Shown: positions 14,991 through 61,057, numbered from the whole stretch's first letter. The stretch is DNA of 63,998 nucleotides, filler included, from a bacterium (GCA_026985515.1; 8 parts of 8 records of this genome joined end to end with filler, not necessarily neighbours in it); one strand, 5' to 3'. Notes: generated by a model from the sequence alone, not told the origin. Program-made: numbers and translations.

Positions 14991-15090
14991 NNNNNNNNNN
15001 NNNNNNNNNNNNNNNNNNNNNNNNNNNNNNNNNNTTAATTAATTAANNNNNNNNNNNNNNNNNNNNNNNNNNNNNNNNNNNNNNNNNNNN
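14991..15090. other. Artificial contig linker
   Basis: N44-TTAATTAATTAA-N44 six-frame stop spacer. Confidence 0.99.
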
Positions 15091-18121: not shown

Positions 18122-21100
18122 ATGAAAAAGGTCTTGCTGTTTTCCTTCATTTTTTTTATTTTTCTCGGATGCAGTGAAAATAACAGGAAGACATCAATGG
18201 TAATCATTCATTTCCCTGGCATCGAAAGAAACAGAATATACAGTGGCTTCAATCCACTCCTTGAAGATAAAGAGGGTAATGAAATAACGGGAATTGGACT
18301 GGCAATAAGAACAAACGGAAAAACTGTAAAAAAAATATCCACCAGGTACCAGAGCAGTGTAACAGTTGAACTTGAATCAAGGAAAAGATATATTTTTGAA
18401 GCATTCGCATGGGCTGATAAAGATGACAGGGAATCCCCATACATAATCTATTCGGGCAAAACCACCAGATATATTGATCAACCACGCGAAGAAATTGAAA
18501 TAATTCTCAATTCACGAATTCATCTGGTTAAAGTTAACTTTAATTTCGGATCAGAAAAATTTCCCAGAATATCTTTCGTTTCAGATTTTCTTGCCACTGA
18601 AACACCATTTATTCAGATGTTAAATTTGCAACGCTTAAAAATCAATTCGCTTTATCTTCCACAGAATTTTCCCGTAAAAGTCCTGGCAATCACACCTGAG
18701 GGGGATAGATCTGTACAGAAAAATCTGATCCCCTCCAGCAATCTCAATGTGGATCTCTCTCGCTGGACTTCTGAAAGGATCCAGAATTCATATTTAGCTT
18801 CACTACACGGATCAGCAGTCAAATATGGGAAACCTCTCCTGGATGGAATCATTTTTCTTGTAAACCAGAATTACTTATACCAGCCCCAGCCACTCCATAT
18901 AACTGAGCTTCCATCCATAGATATTCTGGCGGGAATCTCAGAATCAATAGGTGAGATAAAAAATGGAAAGTATGAACTCACAAACATTTTGCCCGGAAAA
19001 TATTATGCAATCTTCATAGCCAATAAGGATGGTTCCACCAGGGTAGAAGATATTTTTGAGGGGCTAACCAGTGATCCCCTCTCCCTCGGTACAATCTACA
19101 ATGTAAAAGCTCAATATGTAAATCTGAGACCGGGTGATCTGGTAAAGCTGGAGACAGTTGACCTCACCCCACCACTCACATATTTAACCCGATATCCCAC
19201 ATATCCAAAACCACTGACCTACACGGGTACAGTATCAGGTACTTCGGCTCTTTTTGAATTTTTCTCTTCCGCAGAGTATGCAATTTTTGAATGCAGTCTT
19301 GACGGAGGAGAATGGCATCTGTGCACATCCCCCTACAGCGTAAAAGTTGATGAAGGTATCCACACATTCAGTGTCAGGAGTATTGATCAGTATGGCAATC
19401 TGGGACCGGTGGTAACATATTCCTGGATTGTAAAAATAACAAAATGGAGAACAATCTCTACTGGACCCTCTCACGCATGTGGTGTAAAAGATGATGGCAC
19501 ACTCTGGTGCTGGGGTTACAACTCGGAAGGAGAAGTGGGGGAACCGGGCAGAAGTTTCATAAGTTATCCTGAACAGATTTCTCCAACCATTGAATGGGTT
19601 ACAGTCTCGGCAGGTTACAATCATACCTGTGGAATTGATATAAATGGTGATCTCTACTGCTGGGGAGACAATTCATATGGAGAACTGGGAAACGGCACAT
19701 TTGAAAATTCTCCCTATCCTGTGAAAGTTCTCTCATCTGAAAAATGGAGTGATGTTAAAGCAGGTTATCTCTTTACCTGTGGACTCACGACTGACAACAT
19801 AATGGAGTGCTGGGGAGATAACACCTCGGGTAAACTTGGTGACGGTGGTATTGAGGGATACAGAAACTATCCTTCACCCGTGACAGGCCCTTTTTACTGG
19901 GAGAAATTTGCTGTGGGTGATAACCACACCTGTGCCATAAACATGAATGATCATACAGTATGGTGCTGGGGCAAAAATAATAACTACCAGCTTGGGATAA
20001 CAACAGTCTCATATTCCTCTTCGCCAACACGAGCCTCTACCAGAAGATGGCTGGATATTTCGGCGAGCAGTGACCATACCTGTGCAGTTTCGGAAGATGG
20101 ATCTCTCTGGTGCTGGGGATATGAAAATTATTTCCCGGGAGATGTTGAGTTCTACTATGGTATGACGCAGGGATCCACCGGTAACCCCCCTCATAAAGTT
20201 ACTGACTCAACCGACTGGACCAGTGTGAGCTGTGGGGTACACCAGAACTGCGCTTTGAAGAATGATGGATCGCTTTGGTGCTGGGGTAGAAATGTGAGAG
20301 GTGTGTTGATGGATCTTCAGGGTAACATCATCCTCACCCCGGTGCAAACAGGTACATCCAGCTGGCAAAAAATAAGCATCGGAGATGATTATATATGTGC
20401 CATTAAAGATGATGGAACATTGTGGTGCTGGGGTAAAAACAATGAGGGCGAAGTGGGAACAGGTGAATCAGGCATAACACTCTATCCAGAGTATATTTCC
20501 TCAAAAACGATAGACAACTTCGCTTTACTTTCAGCAGGATCCAGCTTTGTAATTGCCACATCATATGATTCAAGTGAACTGTATGGATGGGGTAAAAACA
20601 TTGATCATGAGATATTCTCATATCCGGAATTGTTAACCGAGTCTCCCTTCTTCATGGGGAAAATAACAGAGGTTTCATATATCTCCTCAGGATTCAACCA
20701 TGTGTGTGTCATAGCAGGGAGCAGTGACTCTCTCCTCTGCTGGGGTGATAACAGTGCAGGAGAAATTGGCAACGGTATAACCTCAGACTCTGTAACATCC
20801 CCCACAACCGTCACCTCTGGTGTCTTTCAGGTCTCAGCAGGGGCTGGTTACACCTGTGCCATATTCAGCGACTCAGCATTGAAATGCTGGGGTACCAATA
20901 ATCGTGGACAGTTAGGTACAGGTAATACACAGGAACTTCACTCTCCAACCCTTATCGGCACCAACTGGCAGTACATTTCCACCTCAAAATTTCCATGGCA
21001 TCAGTCCACATGTGGTATCAAAACAGACGGCTCACTATGGTGCTGGGGTGATAACAACTGGGGTCAGGGTGGAAGTGGATTCTATTCAGAAAAAATAACC

Positions 21101-21586
21101 ATCCCTGTCCAGTCAGGTACGGGGAATAACTGGAGTAAAGTCTCTGTGGGCGGAAGACATGTATGCGCAATTGACAACTCCTACAATCTCTACTGCTGGG
21201 GTGACAATGGATATGGGCAACTGGGACTTGGAAAGGGAAGCGAAGCCGAATACAACACACCGCAGTTTGTTGGCACAGACTTTATTGATGTCTCAGCTGG
21301 TTCCAACCATACCTGTGGTGTGAAACTTGATGGCTCAGTCTGGTGCTGGGGTGACAATTCAGCGGGGCAGGTAGGTGCAGGGGATATAAACTTAACATAT
21401 TCATCTCCAGTGATGGTTATTGATTCCGGGGGAATTATGGTTGAAACCGGGGAGGGATTCACCTGCGCAGTGCGACAAACAGAATATGACCACTACTCAC
21501 TTATGTGCTGGGGTAATAATTACTACGGTGAGACAGGAAACGGGAAAGGATGGTCCTACCATCCCGTTAAAGTTACGACAAAATAG
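18122..21586 (+). CDS. RCC1/BLIP-II repeat lipoprotein with an Ig-like domain
   Basis: Lipobox FLGC; FECSLDGGEW...HTFSVRSID Ig-like module; 14 repeats of H(T)C...L(W)CWGxNxxGxLG. Confidence 0.9.
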   Translation: MKKVLLFSFIFFIFLGCSENNRKTSMVIIHFPGIERNRIYSGFNPLLEDKEGNEITGIGLAIRTNGKTVKKISTRYQSSVTVELESRKRYIFEAFAWADKDDRESPYIIYSGKTTRYIDQPREEIEIILNSRIHLVKVNFNFGSEKFPRISFVSDFLATETPFIQMLNLQRLKINSLYLPQNFPVKVLAITPEGDRSVQKNLIPSSNLNVDLSRWTSERIQNSYLASLHGSAVKYGKPLLDGIIFLVNQNYLYQPQPLHITELPSIDILAGISESIGEIKNGKYELTNILPGKYYAIFIANKDGSTRVEDIFEGLTSDPLSLGTIYNVKAQYVNLRPGDLVKLETVDLTPPLTYLTRYPTYPKPLTYTGTVSGTSALFEFFSSAEYAIFECSLDGGEWHLCTSPYSVKVDEGIHTFSVRSIDQYGNLGPVVTYSWIVKITKWRTISTGPSHACGVKDDGTLWCWGYNSEGEVGEPGRSFISYPEQISPTIEWVTVSAGYNHTCGIDINGDLYCWGDNSYGELGNGTFENSPYPVKVLSSEKWSDVKAGYLFTCGLTTDNIMECWGDNTSGKLGDGGIEGYRNYPSPVTGPFYWEKFAVGDNHTCAINMNDHTVWCWGKNNNYQLGITTVSYSSSPTRASTRRWLDISASSDHTCAVSEDGSLWCWGYENYFPGDVEFYYGMTQGSTGNPPHKVTDSTDWTSVSCGVHQNCALKNDGSLWCWGRNVRGVLMDLQGNIILTPVQTGTSSWQKISIGDDYICAIKDDGTLWCWGKNNEGEVGTGESGITLYPEYISSKTIDNFALLSAGSSFVIATSYDSSELYGWGKNIDHEIFSYPELLTESPFFMGKITEVSYISSGFNHVCVIAGSSDSLLCWGDNSAGEIGNGITSDSVTSPTTVTSGVFQVSAGAGYTCAIFSDSALKCWGTNNRGQLGTGNTQELHSPTLIGTNWQYISTSKFPWHQSTCGIKTDGSLWCWGDNNWGQGGSGFYSEKITIPVQSGTGNNWSKVSVGGRHVCAIDNSYNLYCWGDNGYGQLGLGKGSEAEYNTPQFVGTDFIDVSAGSNHTCGVKLDGSVWCWGDNSAGQVGAGDINLTYSSPVMVIDSGGIMVETGEGFTCAVRQTEYDHYSLMCWGNNYYGETGNGKGWSYHPVKVTTK

Positions 21587-21669: not shown

Positions 21670-24051
21670 ATGTTCAGACACTTCAGACATGATGAAAGGA
21701 AAGTTTTACCGCTTGTAATTCTGAGCAGCGAAATACTGTTCCCACACCGCCACATGGATCTAATCATTCCCGACAGAAAAAATAGACTCGCGCTATCCAG
21801 AGCCACTGAAAGAGATGAGAATGTGGCTATATTTTTCAGAACAGGATTTGAAGAAGATCCTCCTGAAATGATGGGGGTTGAAGCAGAAGTTATCTCTCTG
21901 AGGGAACTGGCAAATGGAAGCTACAGGGTAAATCTTCTTGGAAAGCGAAGAATAATTTTGAGGGATATTTTAAGAGAAGAGGAGTCTCTCTCGGCAGTTG
22001 TTGAACCGATGAAAGAAGATCTGAACATAACCCTTGAAGAAAAAGCAATGTTTCTCAATATGATAGAATCACTCAAGGAATACTCACACCTGAAAGATCG
22101 TGATGTGCCTGTGACTCTGAACAGAAAAGAATGGGCTCCCCCGGCAATGAGTGAAATTATAGATGCCATTCCGGAATTTATGGAACTGGCTCCAGAGAAA
22201 AGTTACCCCCTCCTGAAAGAAAGTAACCTGGGGGAAAGAATCAAAATCGCCTTTGAACTTGTTGAAAAAGAACTGGTAATCCTGAAATTGCAGAAAAAGA
22301 TCAAGGAGGATGTAAAAAAGCAGATCGAGAAAAACCAGAAGGAGTACTACCTAAACGAGCAGTTAAAAGCCATCCAGAAAGAACTGGGGCACTTCGAGTC
22401 CTTCAAAGAAGAGATAACACAGCTGGAACAGAAAATATCTGAAAAGGATCTACCACCCAGAGTAAAAGAAGTCGCACTCAGAGAACTGAAAAAACTCAAT
22501 TCAATGCAGCCCACCTCTGCAGAGGCAACTGTTGTGAGGAACTACCTTGACTGGATACTCTCCCTTCCATGGAAGGAGAAAACCAGAGACAGATTGAGTC
22601 TTTCAAGGGCGAAAAAGATACTTGACAGGGACCATTATGGGCTGGAAAAGGTTAAGGAGAGAATCATTGAATACCTCGCAGTAAAAAAACTGAATCGTAA
22701 GTTCAGGGGAAACATACTCTGCTTTGTTGGACCTCCAGGTGTCGGGAAAACATCACTTGCAAAATCCATTGCAAAATCTCTTGGGAGAAAATTTGTGAGA
22801 ATATCTCTTGGTGGAGTGAAGGATGAAGCGGAAATACGGGGACACAGAAGAACCTATGTGGGAGCTCTGCCCGGAAAAATAATTCAGGGAATGAGAAAGG
22901 CAGGGACCATAAATCCAGTCTTTCTCATGGACGAAATCGATAAACTCTCATCTGACTATCGTGGAGATCCCGCATCAGCCCTTCTTGAAGTTCTGGACCC
23001 CGAGCAGAACAACGCATTTCTCGATCACTACCTTGATATTGAGTATGACCTCTCCAATGTTTTCTTTATCACTACAGCCAATTATCTTCCTGCCATCCCT
23101 CCGCCCCTCAGGGACAGAATGGAGATAATCCCCATTGAAGGTTACACAGAACATGAAAAAGTGGAAATTGCTCTGAGACACTTGATCCCCAAGCAGAAAA
23201 AGGAACATGGACTGGGAAAGGTCAAAATAGAATTCAGCCGCGAAGCCATCCTCAAAATAATCAATGAATACACCAGAGAAGCTGGGGTAAGAAATCTGGA
23301 GAGAGAAATTGCAAAGATTATGAGAAAGATTGCCATGGAAGTTGCCACATCAAGGAAGAAAAAAGATGAGATCCATATCGTTATTGATGTGGACAGCATA
23401 GAAACCTATCTTGGCATACCCAGGTTCAAGAGCATTGGAACAGAAAAGATACTCATTCCCGGCATCGTCAACGGACTTGCCTGGACCGAATATGGAGGAG
23501 AGCTTCTCATAATTGAAACCACCATCATACCCGGCAGCGGTAAGTTGACCCTCACGGGGAAACTGGGAGATGTGATGAAGGAATCCTCTCAGGCTGCCCT
23601 CACCTACATCAGATCCATATCGGAGGAGCTTGGTATTGAAGAGGATTTTTATAAAAAGTATGACATTCATGTTCATGTTCCAGAAGGGGCAGTACCAAAG
23701 GATGGTCCCTCTGCAGGTATTGCCATTGCAATCTCCATTGCCTCTGCTCTCACCGGCAGGGTGGTTGATTCACAAATAGCAATGACAGGGGAAATAACTC
23801 TCAGGGGAAGGGTGCTGCCAGTAGGAGGAATAAGAGAAAAACTGCTCGCAGCCCATAGAGAACACATAAAGAAGGTAATTATACCCGCTGAAAACATCCC
23901 TCACCTGGAGGAAATTCCCGATTTTGTCAAAGAAGAGTTAACCATCATACCTGTGGAACACATGGATGAAGTGGTAAAAATCACTCTTGGAAAAGAGATT
24001 GTCAGGTCACTAATCGTTGAATCTGAGGAAGAAAACAACCTTTTTCTATAA
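21670..24051 (+). CDS. lon: ATP-dependent Lon protease
   Basis: DHYGLEKVKERI, GPPGVGKTS, FLMDEIDK, PKDGPSAG catalytic Ser, GGIREK. Confidence 0.97.
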   Translation: MFRHFRHDERKVLPLVILSSEILFPHRHMDLIIPDRKNRLALSRATERDENVAIFFRTGFEEDPPEMMGVEAEVISLRELANGSYRVNLLGKRRIILRDILREEESLSAVVEPMKEDLNITLEEKAMFLNMIESLKEYSHLKDRDVPVTLNRKEWAPPAMSEIIDAIPEFMELAPEKSYPLLKESNLGERIKIAFELVEKELVILKLQKKIKEDVKKQIEKNQKEYYLNEQLKAIQKELGHFESFKEEITQLEQKISEKDLPPRVKEVALRELKKLNSMQPTSAEATVVRNYLDWILSLPWKEKTRDRLSLSRAKKILDRDHYGLEKVKERIIEYLAVKKLNRKFRGNILCFVGPPGVGKTSLAKSIAKSLGRKFVRISLGGVKDEAEIRGHRRTYVGALPGKIIQGMRKAGTINPVFLMDEIDKLSSDYRGDPASALLEVLDPEQNNAFLDHYLDIEYDLSNVFFITTANYLPAIPPPLRDRMEIIPIEGYTEHEKVEIALRHLIPKQKKEHGLGKVKIEFSREAILKIINEYTREAGVRNLEREIAKIMRKIAMEVATSRKKKDEIHIVIDVDSIETYLGIPRFKSIGTEKILIPGIVNGLAWTEYGGELLIIETTIIPGSGKLTLTGKLGDVMKESSQAALTYIRSISEELGIEEDFYKKYDIHVHVPEGAVPKDGPSAGIAIAISIASALTGRVVDSQIAMTGEITLRGRVLPVGGIREKLLAAHREHIKKVIIPAENIPHLEEIPDFVKEELTIIPVEHMDEVVKITLGKEIVRSLIVESEEENNLFL

Positions 24052-29990: not shown

Positions 29991-30090
29991 NNNNNNNNNN
30001 NNNNNNNNNNNNNNNNNNNNNNNNNNNNNNNNNNTTAATTAATTAANNNNNNNNNNNNNNNNNNNNNNNNNNNNNNNNNNNNNNNNNNNN
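29991..30090. other. Artificial contig linker
   Basis: N-run with TTAATTAATTAA. Confidence 0.99.
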
Positions 30091-41916: not shown

Positions 41917-42016
41917 NNNNNNNNNNNNNNNNNNNNNNNNNNNNNNNNNNNNNNNNNNNNTTAATTAATTAANNNNNNNNNNNNNNNNNNNNNNNNNNNN
42001 NNNNNNNNNNNNNNNN
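41917..42016. other. Artificial contig linker
   Basis: N-run with TTAATTAATTAA. Confidence 0.99.
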
Positions 42017-45620: not shown

Positions 45621-46557
45621 TACTCCAGTTCAGCAGTTATTTTTTTCCAGATAGCTCCATAGGTGAGAAATCCGGATGAGATGTAATCCACTCCGGGGAT
45701 GAGATACTCTTTGAGATTATCTCTGGTGATGCCACCGGATACCTCAATTTCTATTCCTTCCATTTTTTCTTTCACAGCCTCCCTCACCATCTCTGGTGAA
45801 AAATTGTCAAGGAGAATTATATCTGGTTTTTCTTTCAGAGCTTCTCTGAATTCTTCCAGATTGTCAACCTCCACTTCTATTTTAAAAACATGCGGAACTT
45901 TTTCTCTTACTTTTTTTATTGCCTTCTCCACCCCTCCAGCTGCAGCTTTGTGATTATCTTTTATCAGTACCCCCTCAGAAAGATTATATCTGTGATTGTA
46001 TCCTCCTCCACATCTCACTGCATATTTTTCAAGGATTCTCCATCCCGGGGTAGTTTTTCTCGTGTCAAGAAGTTTGATTGGCAAGTTAGATTTCCTTATA
46101 ATTTCAACCATTTCCGCTGTTAGTGTGGCGATCCCCGACAGTCGGGAAATAAAGTTTAAAATGGGTCTTTCCATCAGAAGTAATTTTTTAATCTCCCCGG
46201 TTAACACCATTATGATGGAATTTTTTGAAATCNNNNNNNNNNNNNNNNNNNNNNNNNNNNNNNNNNNNNNNNNNNNTTAATTAATTAANNNNNNNNNNNN
46301 NNNNNNNNNNNNNNNNNNNNNNNNNNNNNNNNCCCAGTTCCATCTTCAGTCAAAAAAGCAACCTTTATTGTCTGATCAACTTTTCTCACCAGTCGGGAAA
46401 CCACGAAATTGCCGCAGTAAACCATTTCTTCTTCTGCTCTGATAATGAGTTTCTTTACCTGATTTTCCTCAAAAATGGATTCCGATGTTATATCCCCGTG
46501 GGGAGAATCTTCCATGAGGGCAAGGTCAATTATTTTGTCCAGGAGAAAGCTGTTCAT
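45620..46557 (-). CDS. nadC: Quinolinate phosphoribosyltransferase, split by an assembly gap
   Basis: N-part ALMEDSPHGDITS (46333-46557); C-part LSGIAT, DTRKTTPG, HR, IKDNH, EVEV, LLDN, SGG (45620-46232). Confidence 0.93.
46233..46332. other. Artificial contig linker within nadC
   Basis: N-run with TTAATTAATTAA. Confidence 0.99.
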
Positions 46558-53300: not shown

Positions 53301-53400
53301 NNNNNNNNNNNNNNNNNNNNNNNNNNNNNNNNNNNNNNNNNNNNTTAATTAATTAANNNNNNNNNNNNNNNNNNNNNNNNNNNNNNNNNNNNNNNNNNNN
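53301..53400. other. Artificial contig linker
   Basis: N-run with TTAATTAATTAA. Confidence 0.99.
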
Positions 53401-55761
53401 CTAAAACATCAGAAGGTTCTGTCTCGCTACAACCACCTCCTCCGCCACTGCCACCCCCCGATGAACATGGGGAGATAGGATGAACTGCGGTATCCCAATA
53501 TAACGGAGTTGATGCCCATAAATCAATTCTATGAGTCTGAAAATCAGAAATGTCTCCGAAAAATAATCTCACATAATGTCTATCAGCACAAAGAGGGTCA
53601 CTGATAACTTTACCCAATACCACCAATTTTCTTACATCTTCTTCTACACCATAAGCGAAGGCAGAATGAGCTCCGCTATTATCCTCAATTATAGCAGTAG
53701 TAGGAATATAAGAATGCTCTACCGGGGAATTCTTTCCATGTATTTCATCATATAAGAAATTCCAGGGTGATTCCGCTTTAATTACAATAATCTCCTTCTC
53801 TTCTACATGCATACTACTAGGAGATGTGTCACCGAGAGATATCTGATGGACTAAGACTTTGTATTCCTTAACACTATCTTCAGTGTCGTATTCCATACCA
53901 TACAATTCCGCTACTTTTTTTATACCCGAAGATATATTCCATGGTAAAGTAAAACCGATAGGGGAAACTGTATACATTGCCGTATGAAGTCTTATAAGCA
54001 ACTTCGCAATAGCGTCATCCATATCACCTATGCATTTGTCATAATTACTTTTTCTCCATTCCCAGTATTTGAAAATCATAGCAGCCGTTGTCGGTGAACA
54101 CCCAACCCAACCATAAGAAGAAGGGAATTTGCTTTTATCCAATGCAACATTCCAAACTTTGTAAAGTCTACGTTTAAGATCTTCGTTTGTAAAACCACCC
54201 CACCTAAAACCACTTACAACATACTTTTTCACTTTTGTCACTTTACAACTTCCCACATATTTGCTAAACCAGCTGGATGATTTAAAAGTTTTAAATGAAC
54301 TTATAGATTCCGATGAGAAAGAAGAAATTGTCGAAACAGTAGAATAGGTAGCTGGATAAAGGAATTCTTTCCATTCATAATCCCGTAGAATTTGCCACTT
54401 AGTTGCAATAGTCACCGGTAGGCTTGAAAGATATCTCTGTGTTTCCATCGAAACTACATCAAAATAAAAAGGTTCTATCTTGGGAAAACCATCTCCCAGA
54501 CGATATATCCCTATATACTCACCTGTAGCAGCATCATAATATTCGGCGTAGAAAAACATAGGAGGTAGATAAATTATTCTCGTAAACACTGGTTTAATAT
54601 AACCTTCAGATGTAAGCTGCCTTCCATATTCATATGCTACAACCTGAGGAGGTATATGACCACCCCCAAGATCGACACCCGTTCTTCTGTCGGTCCCTAA
54701 GACTCTGTATGTTATTCCTGTCACATCAGGTGAAAATGGCTTGCTTAGATCAACATCTGAAGATGAAAAAATTGCAATTGCAACTCCTGGTAAATTTCCT
54801 CCTCCATCCGCATATTGAATAGTTATTACCTTCTTATCTTTTTCTCCTTCCATAAGCCTTATGGCATTTGCCAACTGCCTCATCACCATCTGACTGAACT
54901 TAACCTTCATCTTACCTTTATTGTGCAAGTTGTGTGCCACGAAAAGCCCTCCGTATATTTCAATCTCTGCATTGAAACCTGTCATCATCTGACCTGTGTA
55001 AATACCGGTATTAAATCTCCCATATCCGTCAACTATCAACATACCCCTGACAAGTAACCCTGGCCACTCAATACTTTGAAGAATAAGAGTGCTCTCGCTA
55101 TCAATAATTAACGCTCCATTCACACTCAGATCCCCAACTAAATCCACCCAAGCACCATTCATCTTTACCCCACTTTCAAAAACGGCACTTCCCCTTACAT
55201 AACCCTGTCCCTCTATAACCCATTCACCTCCATCCCATCTGAATGTTACCCCTCCAGTAGTGAATTCACCATAACCAACAATCTCTCCATCCTTGATCAC
55301 CTCTCCCGAATCAGAAAATATATATGTCGCATCAGAAATCCTTCTGCCATAATTCCTCCCAAAAAGATCATCGGGACCTTTGATACATCTATGTTCCTCA
55401 ATCACATCCTCTACATCCAGTTCCCCTTCCCTGTGAATTTTCCGACAGAACAGTTCTGCATTACTTCTGATAACACCACAATTATGCAGATCCTTTCCGA
55501 TGACTATATTGCTTCCTTCACCATCAAGGGTAATCTGACCCCTGTTTTGCAGCATATTACCAACCCAGATGGATGAAGGAACATTAAGTGTTACCTGAGT
55601 ACCACAATATCCATATCCTCCATGATGATTTTCATTATGATTTCCATGAGAAGGATGTGCTTCAAGAGTAAAGTCACTGAGTAAAAGAAAAGAAATAATC
55701 AGGAAAAAGTATCCAAAGATGTGTTTCAGGTAGGTAGGTAGGTAGGTAGGTTGAGCTTCAT
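53401..55761 (-). CDS. Secreted multidomain protein with a papain-like (C10/C39-like) cysteine peptidase domain; frameshifted at a 5' tetranucleotide repeat; C-terminus truncated
   Basis: GWVGCSPTTAAMIFKYW (Cys codon 54098-54100), GAHSAFAYG (His codon 53666-53668), C-terminal SSGGGSGGGGGCS. The true start is ATG 55761 with an AGGGG RBS; the signal-peptide coding region is out of frame with it. Confidence 0.75.
55728..55751 (-). repeat. (ACCT)6 simple sequence repeat
   Basis: The plus strand reads AGGT six times, beginning 10 nt into the gene from ATG 55761. Confidence 0.97.
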
Positions 55762-55789
55762 TTTTGCACCCCTGTGATTATTCATAAAA

Positions 55790-55819
55790 ATTGTAGAGCA
55801 AGTTTTTAATTACTGTCAA
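55790..55819 (-). promoter_or_regulatory. Sigma70 promoter for the peptidase gene
   Basis: TTGACA-N18-TACAAT. Confidence 0.65.
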
Positions 55820-55837
55820 GTTTATACCTTATAGAGT

Positions 55838-57127
55838 TCACTCAACCTTTCCCACTTCTTCAATCTTAATTTTCCCTGATGAACTGTCATAAAAAATCTT
55901 GTATACATTAAAATTATCTACACCTTTAAAATCACACTTACTCTTTTTCAAACCTAAGTCCACATTCCCGATGAAAAACATTTTATTACCAATCCATGCG
56001 AAATTATAGATATTTTTCTCGAAATTCCAACACCAGTAGGACTCATTCCTGCATATTTGTAAAGGATACAATTTAATCTCTTCGGGAATATAAGCTAATG
56101 GTATAAACGCTATGCTATGCACTGCCTCAACATCTCTGAAAATCACAAATATTCCATCACTTACTTTCCTGGCATACATCAGGGAAAGATCTTCCACCTG
56201 TATTCCATCCAGATTCAGTGTAATTTTCTTTATTAATCTCTTCTCCCGATAGTTATACAGGTAAAGAACTCCTCTGTCATCAGGATTGGAACAAAAAGTG
56301 GTACAATAGGAGTATTTCTGGGCAATCAAAAAATCACCTGCAAAAGCTATAAATTTAAATGGCTGCCCCAATGTATCCATCGTGATTTTTCCAAGATAAC
56401 TTCTAGGCTGAAAAATCTCACTGGATTCAGTGAAATTCAGTTGATCAACCACAATTTCGCTGGCTTGAACGAAAGAATATAAAAAACGCTCTGATTCTTC
56501 ATCGTAATTCAAATAATAATATTTTACACCCTCAGGATGATCTATTGGGATTTCCTTTCTTGTAACATAATCTTCTATGCAGGGTTCTTCATTTTTCGTA
56601 CCTTTTTCTGCAAGAATACCTAAGTTAAACACATCCAGGATACTTGATTCATTTAAGGGAATTGTATTCGCAAAATACAATGAATAGCGATCATCGCTGC
56701 ACTTATTTTTGGATGAATTAAGTTTCCCAATCCATTTCTTGTAATCATCTATAATATCATACAAGTACACATATCCATTCTTGGTATCTTCAAGAATAAC
56801 CCACTTCTTATCAAATGTCATGGGAGAAATTTTGTAATAATTAAACTCATACACTCCAGCTCCCCACTTATAGCTTCCTTTAAAGGTTTTGTGTTTTATT
56901 TTATTTATCCCGCTGTTACCCACCTTGTAAACATTAATGTCAGTTGTAAAAATTCCATCCTCACCATTATAAACGACCTTAACTGCGTAAAGATTTGAAG
57001 CATCTGACAGAAAGAAAGGGAAGCTATAAACGGGAGGAGTAGGATAATAGGGACAATATTCGCACCCATTTAATAAAATAATTGCAAAACTCAAAATAAA
57101 AATAATAATATGTCTATTTAGCCTCAT
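55838..57127 (-). CDS. Hypothetical lipoprotein (beta-rich, Cys-containing)
   Basis: MRLNRHIIIFILSFAIILLNGC lipobox; aromatic and beta-strand rich; AT-rich. Confidence 0.8.
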   Translation of the reverse strand: MRLNRHIIIFILSFAIILLNGCEYCPYYPTPPVYSFPFFLSDASNLYAVKVVYNGEDGIFTTDINVYKVGNSGINKIKHKTFKGSYKWGAGVYEFNYYKISPMTFDKKWVILEDTKNGYVYLYDIIDDYKKWIGKLNSSKNKCSDDRYSLYFANTIPLNESSILDVFNLGILAEKGTKNEEPCIEDYVTRKEIPIDHPEGVKYYYLNYDEESERFLYSFVQASEIVVDQLNFTESSEIFQPRSYLGKITMDTLGQPFKFIAFAGDFLIAQKYSYCTTFCSNPDDRGVLYLYNYREKRLIKKITLNLDGIQVEDLSLMYARKVSDGIFVIFRDVEAVHSIAFIPLAYIPEEIKLYPLQICRNESYWCWNFEKNIYNFAWIGNKMFFIGNVDLGLKKSKCDFKGVDNFNVYKIFYDSSSGKIKIEEVGKVE

Positions 57128-57156
57128 ATATTCTCTTCCTTTTGTAGAGAAAAAAC

Positions 57157-57256
57157 NNNNNNNNNNNNNNNNNNNNNNNNNNNNNNNNNNNNNNNNNNNN
57201 TTAATTAATTAANNNNNNNNNNNNNNNNNNNNNNNNNNNNNNNNNNNNNNNNNNNN
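57157..57256. other. Artificial contig linker
   Basis: N-run with TTAATTAATTAA. Confidence 0.99.
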
Positions 57257-60957: not shown

Positions 60958-61057
60958 NNNNNNNNNNNNNNNNNNNNNNNNNNNNNNNNNNNNNNNNNNN
61001 NTTAATTAATTAANNNNNNNNNNNNNNNNNNNNNNNNNNNNNNNNNNNNNNNNNNNN
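60958..61057. other. Artificial contig linker
   Basis: N-run with TTAATTAATTAA. Confidence 0.99.

Follow-up and report, generated by a model that had tools for sequence, protein, structure and literature searches.

Phase variation driven by short tandem repeats is long established in pathogens and commensals that are adapted to a host. In Haemophilus influenzae, the hgp genes, which encode haemoglobin-binding proteins, carry a (CCAA)n tract in the leader-peptide region and licA carries a (CAAT)n tract, and in Neisseria, the (CTCTT)n repeat of the opa genes lies in the region that codes for the signal peptide. In the present study, we examined a stretch of DNA of 63,998 bases from a bacterial genome assembly (GCA_026985515.1), hereafter called the window, of which 63,298 bases are real (41.5% G+C). 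The window consists of 8 contigs with artificial linkers (N44-TTAATTAATTAA-N44) between them and is not one molecule. On one of the contigs, a perfect tract of six ACCT units, (ACCT)6, follows an ATG codon that is out of frame with a long open reading frame. The predicted product of the long frame, designated P0002, appears to be an exported protein of a very rare family. We read the locus, with somewhat better than even confidence, as a translational phase-variation (contingency) locus that works by slipped-strand mispairing and has been caught in the OFF state. Such a mechanism is familiar from other bacteria; the novelty lies in the lineage that carries it and in the orphan family of the protein.

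The likeness to hgp and licA of H. influenzae lies in a perfect 4-nucleotide repeat in the 5' part of the reading frame of a gene for a surface protein (a putative one in our case), with one third of the unit counts in frame. The loci differ in the repeat unit, in the protein family, and in the number of units, which is mostly 10-40 in H. influenzae, according to an excerpted table of PMC2651432, and 6 here. Moreover, variation in unit number is documented in H. influenzae, whereas here the six units come from one assembly, and the host is uncultured and probably free-living. The hgp genes form a paralogous family with recombination between the copies, as stated in the excerpt of PMC2651432. 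The opa genes of Neisseria, whose phase variation is treated in an excerpt of PMC5953494 along with cut-offs for repeats, are comparable in that a repeat switches the translation of multi-copy, mosaic outer-surface proteins. They are different in that the unit is a pentanucleotide, the product is a beta-barrel adhesin, and the bacteria are host-restricted.

Repeat tract, start codon, and reading frame

The gene shares a contig of 3756 bp (53401-57156) with one other gene, and the minus strand encodes both. Among the 37 rows reported by Tandem Repeats Finder, the single period-4 array was the tract at 55728-55751, with 6.0 copies and 100% matches. Its unit reads AGGT on the plus strand and ACCT on the minus strand, and the tract begins 10 nucleotides after the ATG at 55761, the minus strand reading ATG AAG CTC A (ACCT)6 G. 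A separate repeat scan of the window found no further tetranucleotide repeat of at least 3 units, except for three TTAA units in each of the 7 linkers; these "repeats", like any open frame that runs across a linker, are artificial. We also simulated the 63,298 real bases 300 times with a first-order Markov model and scored the longest tetranucleotide repeat in each simulation. This was shorter than 3 units in 94 simulations and reached 3 units in 201 and 4 in another 5, and a repeat of at least 5 units occurred in 0 of the 300. The (ACCT)6 tract is non-random. Its six units are also above the cut-off of 5 or more units for phase-variable tetranucleotide repeats that is given in the excerpt of PMC5953494 and is used in phasome surveys.

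The unit length of 4 nucleotides is not divisible by 3, and the position of the tract is within the reading frame, 3' of the start codon. The first canonical start codon (ATG, GTG, or TTG) of the long frame is the ATG at 55555 (M75 of P0002), 206 nucleotides from the ATG at 55761; through the tract, the long frame reads ...QPTYLPTYLKHIFGYFFLIISFLLLSDFTLEAHPSHG... We used a script that varied the unit number alone. With 1, 4, 7, or 10 units, the ATG at 55761 was joined to the long frame, while the products were 11 amino acid residues with 6 units, 27 with 5 units, and 31 with 8 units. Thus, every third unit count is in frame, and the observed count of 6 is one step (+1 unit) from the in-frame count of 7. 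Most of this had been claimed in a preliminary description of the DNA and was borne out: the promoter, ribosome-binding site, ATG, and (ACCT)6 anatomy, every element of which we found in the minus-strand sequence; the peptide MKLNLPTYLPT followed by TGA with 6 units, which translation reproduced; the distance of 206 nucleotides and the restoration of the frame by 7 or 4 units, to which the script adds 1 and 10; the absence of any comparable tetranucleotide tract elsewhere in the window, leaving aside the linkers; and a protein of more than 700 residues, the long frame having 792 codons and running off the end of the contig. Gene decay, named beforehand as a sign against a switch, was not seen in the 792 open codons. 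The P0002 frame has no other stop or frameshift, and the median stop-free runs in the other two frames are 10 and 7 codons. A gene on the plus strand across the tract was also considered and was rejected, as the frames there are of 27-61 residues only.

Between the tract and M75, the sequence is coding. The long frame has 74 stop-free codons before M75, for which the chance probability is about 0.013 at the stop frequency of the contig. One relative of P0002 (P0004) aligns to this part from residue 30, with 47% identity over 194 residues, and has ...VVYA|SPHNG at the place that corresponds to the putative signal-peptide cleavage site; another (P0008) aligns from residue 44. The hydrophobic core of the signal-peptide-like segment occupies residues 20-34, with a Kyte-Doolittle hydropathy peak of 2.8 over residues 24-34. 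The good signal peptide of the preliminary description is a signal-peptide-like segment with a hydrophobic core and a putative cleavage site. Upstream of M75, the long frame lacks ATG, GTG, and TTG codons. The signal-peptide-like segment is coding and therefore belongs to the protein, and of the canonical start codons, only the ATG at 55761, which is out of frame, could provide it.

Directly after the putative cleavage site, residues 41-54 (55615-55657, minus strand) form a His-rich stretch, HPSHGNHNENHHGG, and P0004 and P0008 have similar His- and Asn-rich stretches at the corresponding place. In the mature protein, this stretch may form an N-terminus that binds metal. The coordinates of the features are listed in Table 1.

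Table 1. Locations of the features discussed, numbered from the first base of the window
Feature	Coordinates	Strand	Remarks
(ACCT)6 tract, proposed slippage site	55728..55751	-	Exactly 24 nucleotides, perfect; no partial unit on either side
Short frame, 6-unit state	55726..55761	-	ATG, 11 codons (MKLNLPTYLPT), TGA (55728-55726)
Long open frame (P0002)	53402..55777	-	792 codons; 3' end cut by contig end
Promoter-like TTGACA-N18-TACAAT	55790..55819	-	TTGACA 55819-55814; TACAAT 55795-55790; in the 76-nucleotide gap after the upstream gene
Shine-Dalgarno-like AGGGG	55769..55773	-	7 nucleotides before ATG 55761; read from the sequence
Signal-peptide-like segment	55658..55726	-	Long-frame residues 18-40: KH, hydrophobic core IFGYFFLIISFLLL, SDFTLEA; then His-rich stretch
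N-terminal beta-solenoid-like domain	54893..55570	-	Residues ~70-295; AlphaFold2 and Foldseek
C-terminal domain with Cys560 (GCSP motif) and His704	53468..54250	-	Possible papain/C39-like peptidase, unproven
Gly-run and Cys (SSGGGSGGGGGCSE...)	53402..53455	-	Start of C-terminal tail; cut by contig end inside the motif
Upstream gene (P0001)	55838..57127	-	Same strand; 429-residue orphan, lipoprotein-like N-terminus (…FAIILLNGC), several Cys
Artificial linkers	14991-15090, 29991-30090, 41917-42016, 46233-46332, 53301-53400, 57157-57256, 60958-61057

Predicted protein and its relatives

P0002 had no significant match in Pfam, NCBIfam, PHROGs, or PADLOC, and its family is very rare. There were 6 matches at E <= 0.001 among 1.84 billion representatives, and in a set of 5.8 billion sequences, 1 match among 8000 scored candidates. 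Scans of 185,579 species-representative genomes gave 56 pattern matches with P0002 and 51 with an alignment of five family sequences, none of which was confirmed in either scan. No relative was found in plasmids and phages by tblastn, and no paralogue in the window by tblastn of the family. A search with residues 1-130 for N-terminal fragments or ON-state forms returned 24 candidates, 0 of them significant.

In the full-length AlphaFold2 model, only residues ~70-295 were modelled well. This part has short regular strands and block values of the predicted local distance difference test (pLDDT) mostly of 77-92, with lower blocks (44-69) around residues 121-150, 231-240, and 251-260. Its best Foldseek match was the ComZ pilin (E 1.3e-4), followed by tapirin, ice-binding proteins, and bactofilin. 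The template modelling (TM) scores of these matches are low (0.09-0.15 on the query and up to 0.59 on the small bactofilin), at 8-13% identity. One relative (P0005) had a sub-threshold match to Bactofilin (E 0.0062). As modelled, the domain resembles beta-solenoid surface proteins (the ComZ pilin, tapirins, DUF3494 ice-binding proteins, and bactofilin) in its confident stack of short strands, but P0002 shows no sequence-family match to them.

The preliminary description had called P0002 a secreted cysteine peptidase. Cys560 and His704 are invariant, in the order Cys then His, in 5 of 5 aligned sequences, and may be catalytic. The likeness to Peptidase_C39_2 and papain-like enzymes is that a Cys (in GCSP, at a predicted helix start) precedes a His (at a strand start) in all five aligned sequences; the difference is that no member matches at the curated cut-off, P0002 itself has no match, and the fold is unconfirmed. 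Relatives gave sub-threshold matches to Peptidase_C39_2 (E 0.24 and 0.087; 12.4 and 13.8 bits against a cut-off of 24) and to Mplas_Cys_pep, a family of putative cysteine peptidases from mycoplasmas (E 0.046; 13.6 bits against a cut-off of 45). The model of the C-terminal domain is poor (mean pLDDT 42.4), and Foldseek with this model gave no match at E <= 0.001. Profile searches of the PDB gave Gly-linker artefacts only. The peptidase label is therefore a lead and not an established result.

The C-termini of three relatives (P0003, P0006, and P0007) have a Gly-run, a Cys (e.g., GGGGGGCS...), a hydrophobic segment, and a basic tail, and the contig that encodes P0002 ends inside the start of such a tail. 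To judge from its sequence, this arrangement resembles a C-terminal signal for sorting or anchoring. Known C-terminal sorting signals include PEP-CTERM, GlyGly-CTERM, and MYXO-CTERM; no curated sorting-domain model of NCBIfam matched P0003, P0006, or P0007 at E <= 1. An anchor-like tail would imply export. It is therefore odd that, as predicted, all four relatives that cover the N-terminus (P0003, P0004, P0005, and P0008) lack a complete signal peptide. The first residue of P0003, which is encoded on a separate contig of 13,157 bp, is the exact equivalent of M75; the VYA|SP site of P0004 is preceded by only 11 residues and the LFA|GP site of P0008 by only 8, and P0005 starts beyond that point. 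These truncated forms could be the output of gene callers at genes whose true start codon is out of frame, and a break of the frame at the 5' end may be a trait of the family.

P0002 and P0003 are mosaic with respect to each other. Residues 75-274 are identical at 187 of 200 positions, the identity breaks near residue 300, the blocks up to residue 774 have 37-54% identity, and the last 18 aligned residues have 67%. Such a pattern is typical of variable surface-protein families, and it suggests a common 5' cassette with divergent C-terminal halves, produced by recombination or present as paralogues.

Proposed phase variation and competing explanations

According to the proposed mechanism, the tract falls within the region that would encode the beginning of the signal peptide in an exported beta-solenoid/Cys-His protein, and slipped-strand mispairing at replication would add or remove 4-nucleotide units. 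With 1, 4, 7, or 10 units, translation from the ATG at 55761 would give a product MKLN-(LPTY)n-LKH followed by the hydrophobic core, and this product would be exported. The assembled state of 6 units, which ends after 11 codons, would be OFF, and one additional unit would switch the gene ON. We infer real changes of the unit number within the population, export of the ON product, and an adaptive value of the switching. The contingency locus in the OFF state had been proposed in the preliminary description; the anatomy, the frame arithmetic, and a tract above the 5-unit cut-off are in favor of it, but the idea that evasion of phages or predators is the selective agent is pure speculation.

Several observations weigh against a phase-variable switch. 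The unit number is known from one assembled sequence (6 units), and no variation was seen. Classical contingency organisms have many tracts of this kind, and the 63 kb of genome examined contain a single one. P0003 apparently has no in-frame start either, and two OFF states out of two fit a random phase but also fit a fixed arrangement; the N-termini of the truncated relatives could instead result from fragmentary contigs or from the choices of gene callers. The promoter-like site matches at 11 of 12 positions and has the highest score in the contig, but the contig contains 10 such sites compared with 13.1 +/- 3.6 in shuffled sequences and is not enriched in them, so the promoter proposed earlier is suggestive only. 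The rate of switching is said to rise with tract length (attributed to De Bolle et al. 2000); thus, with such a short tract, switching here may be slow. Six units are at the short end beside the numbers of H. influenzae, mostly 10-40, in the excerpt of PMC2651432.

Some of these observations would also be expected if a single slippage event in a tolerated signal-peptide repeat had produced a young pseudogene and not a maintained switch. The only state seen is out of frame, the six-unit tract is short, P0003 is perhaps out of frame too, and no other contingency-type tract exists in the 63 kb. We consider a one-off inactivation unlikely, because the 792 codons contain no further lesion, because a perfect six-unit tract, given the 0 of 300 simulations, would signal ongoing slippage together with selection for or tolerance of mutability, and because a single event of +1 unit reverts the loss, which is hence reversible. 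Improbable, too, is that the count of 6 is an artefact of assembly or consensus, the true count being in frame (e.g., 7) or a mixed population having been collapsed to 6, so that the gene is ON. The contig is short (3756 bp), the assembly is fragmented, and the count is that of the assembly consensus alone. Nevertheless, the exact loss of one 4-nucleotide unit in a 24-nucleotide tract is not a typical base-calling error, P0003 on its separate contig also begins at M75, as expected when there is no in-frame upstream start, and a mixture of counts in the population would amount to phase variation in its own right.

The 6-unit state might also not be fully OFF. Ribosomes might reinitiate at a CTG of the long frame that overlaps the TGA of the leader (CTGA, 55729-55726, minus strand), giving a 24-residue signal peptide (M-KH-IFGYFF...TLEA) with a compact n-h-c layout, or translation might start at M75 without a signal peptide, as P0003 was called. 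We regard this as quite improbable. Initiation at CTG is very weak in bacteria, and leaky expression leaves the perfect six-unit repeat unexplained. As for M75, the best purine-rich match just upstream is GGTTGG, a weak ribosome-binding site, and a protein that starts there loses the conserved hydrophobic and His-rich segment, though the relatives carry an anchor-like C-terminal tail. The geometry of the CTGA overlap is that of the ATGA overlaps in translational coupling, and the OFF state might be weakly expressed through it. Programmed ribosomal frameshifting at the tract would join the ATG frame to the long frame in another way. The stop codon directly after the tract and the G-rich element upstream loosely recall the RF2 gene, but the shift from the ATG frame to the long frame is -1 (or +2) and not +1, and the tract contains no X-XXY-YYZ slippery heptamer, with ACC unable to re-pair at -1. 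With the wrong direction and no slippery site, frameshifting is hardly credible, and we rejected it.

If the locus is a phase-variable switch, a wider reading can be proposed, to which we assign only a small probability. The break of the frame at the 5' end would be common to the whole of this rare family of exported beta-solenoid/Cys-His proteins of uncultured free-living bacteria, and highly divergent C-terminal halves would be joined to a conserved 5' cassette that comprises the promoter, the start codon, the repeat tract, the signal peptide, and the solenoid. The family would then have both on/off switching and mosaic variation, in the manner of opa and hgp, outside host-associated lineages.

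Host lineage and implications

The valine-tRNA ligase (ValRS) encoded in the window has relatives at 83-84% identity, and the nearest ones with a taxon label have 58-63%. The labelled relatives are metagenome-assembled genomes (MAGs) of Deferribacteres, Thermosulfidibacteraceae, Schekmanbacteria, Deltaproteobacteria, and Thermodesulfobacteriota. The host probably belongs to an uncultured lineage and is probably environmental, i.e., free-living. The earlier characterization as an environmental organism is thus plausible, as far as uncultured MAGs at 58-63% identity in ValRS can indicate.

As for the rest of the window, contigs that adjoin in it are not implied to be adjacent in the genome. The 429-residue protein encoded upstream of P0002 had no significant family in Pfam, NCBIfam, PHROGs, or PADLOC, and an Rfam scan of the window found no family. 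An open reading frame of 1154 residues at 18122-21586 (plus strand), beside lon (21670-24051), had no NCBIfam match at E <= 1e-5.

A review from 2025 (PMC11868660), in its excerpted text, leaves open whether the restriction of genomes rich in phase-variable loci to pathogens is real or a bias of the databases, and calls for the mapping of phase-variable loci across microbial phylogeny. We found no survey of repeat-driven phase variation in metagenomes or free-living bacteria, in a search that most papers in subscription journals fell outside. Gene callers cut genes of this type to the first in-frame ATG, as in P0003, and their signal peptides are thereby hidden. If the tetranucleotide switch of an exported protein were verified in this deep-branching uncultured lineage, it would count as a single case in favor of database bias, and it would mark the orphan family as surface-exposed and under fluctuating selection.

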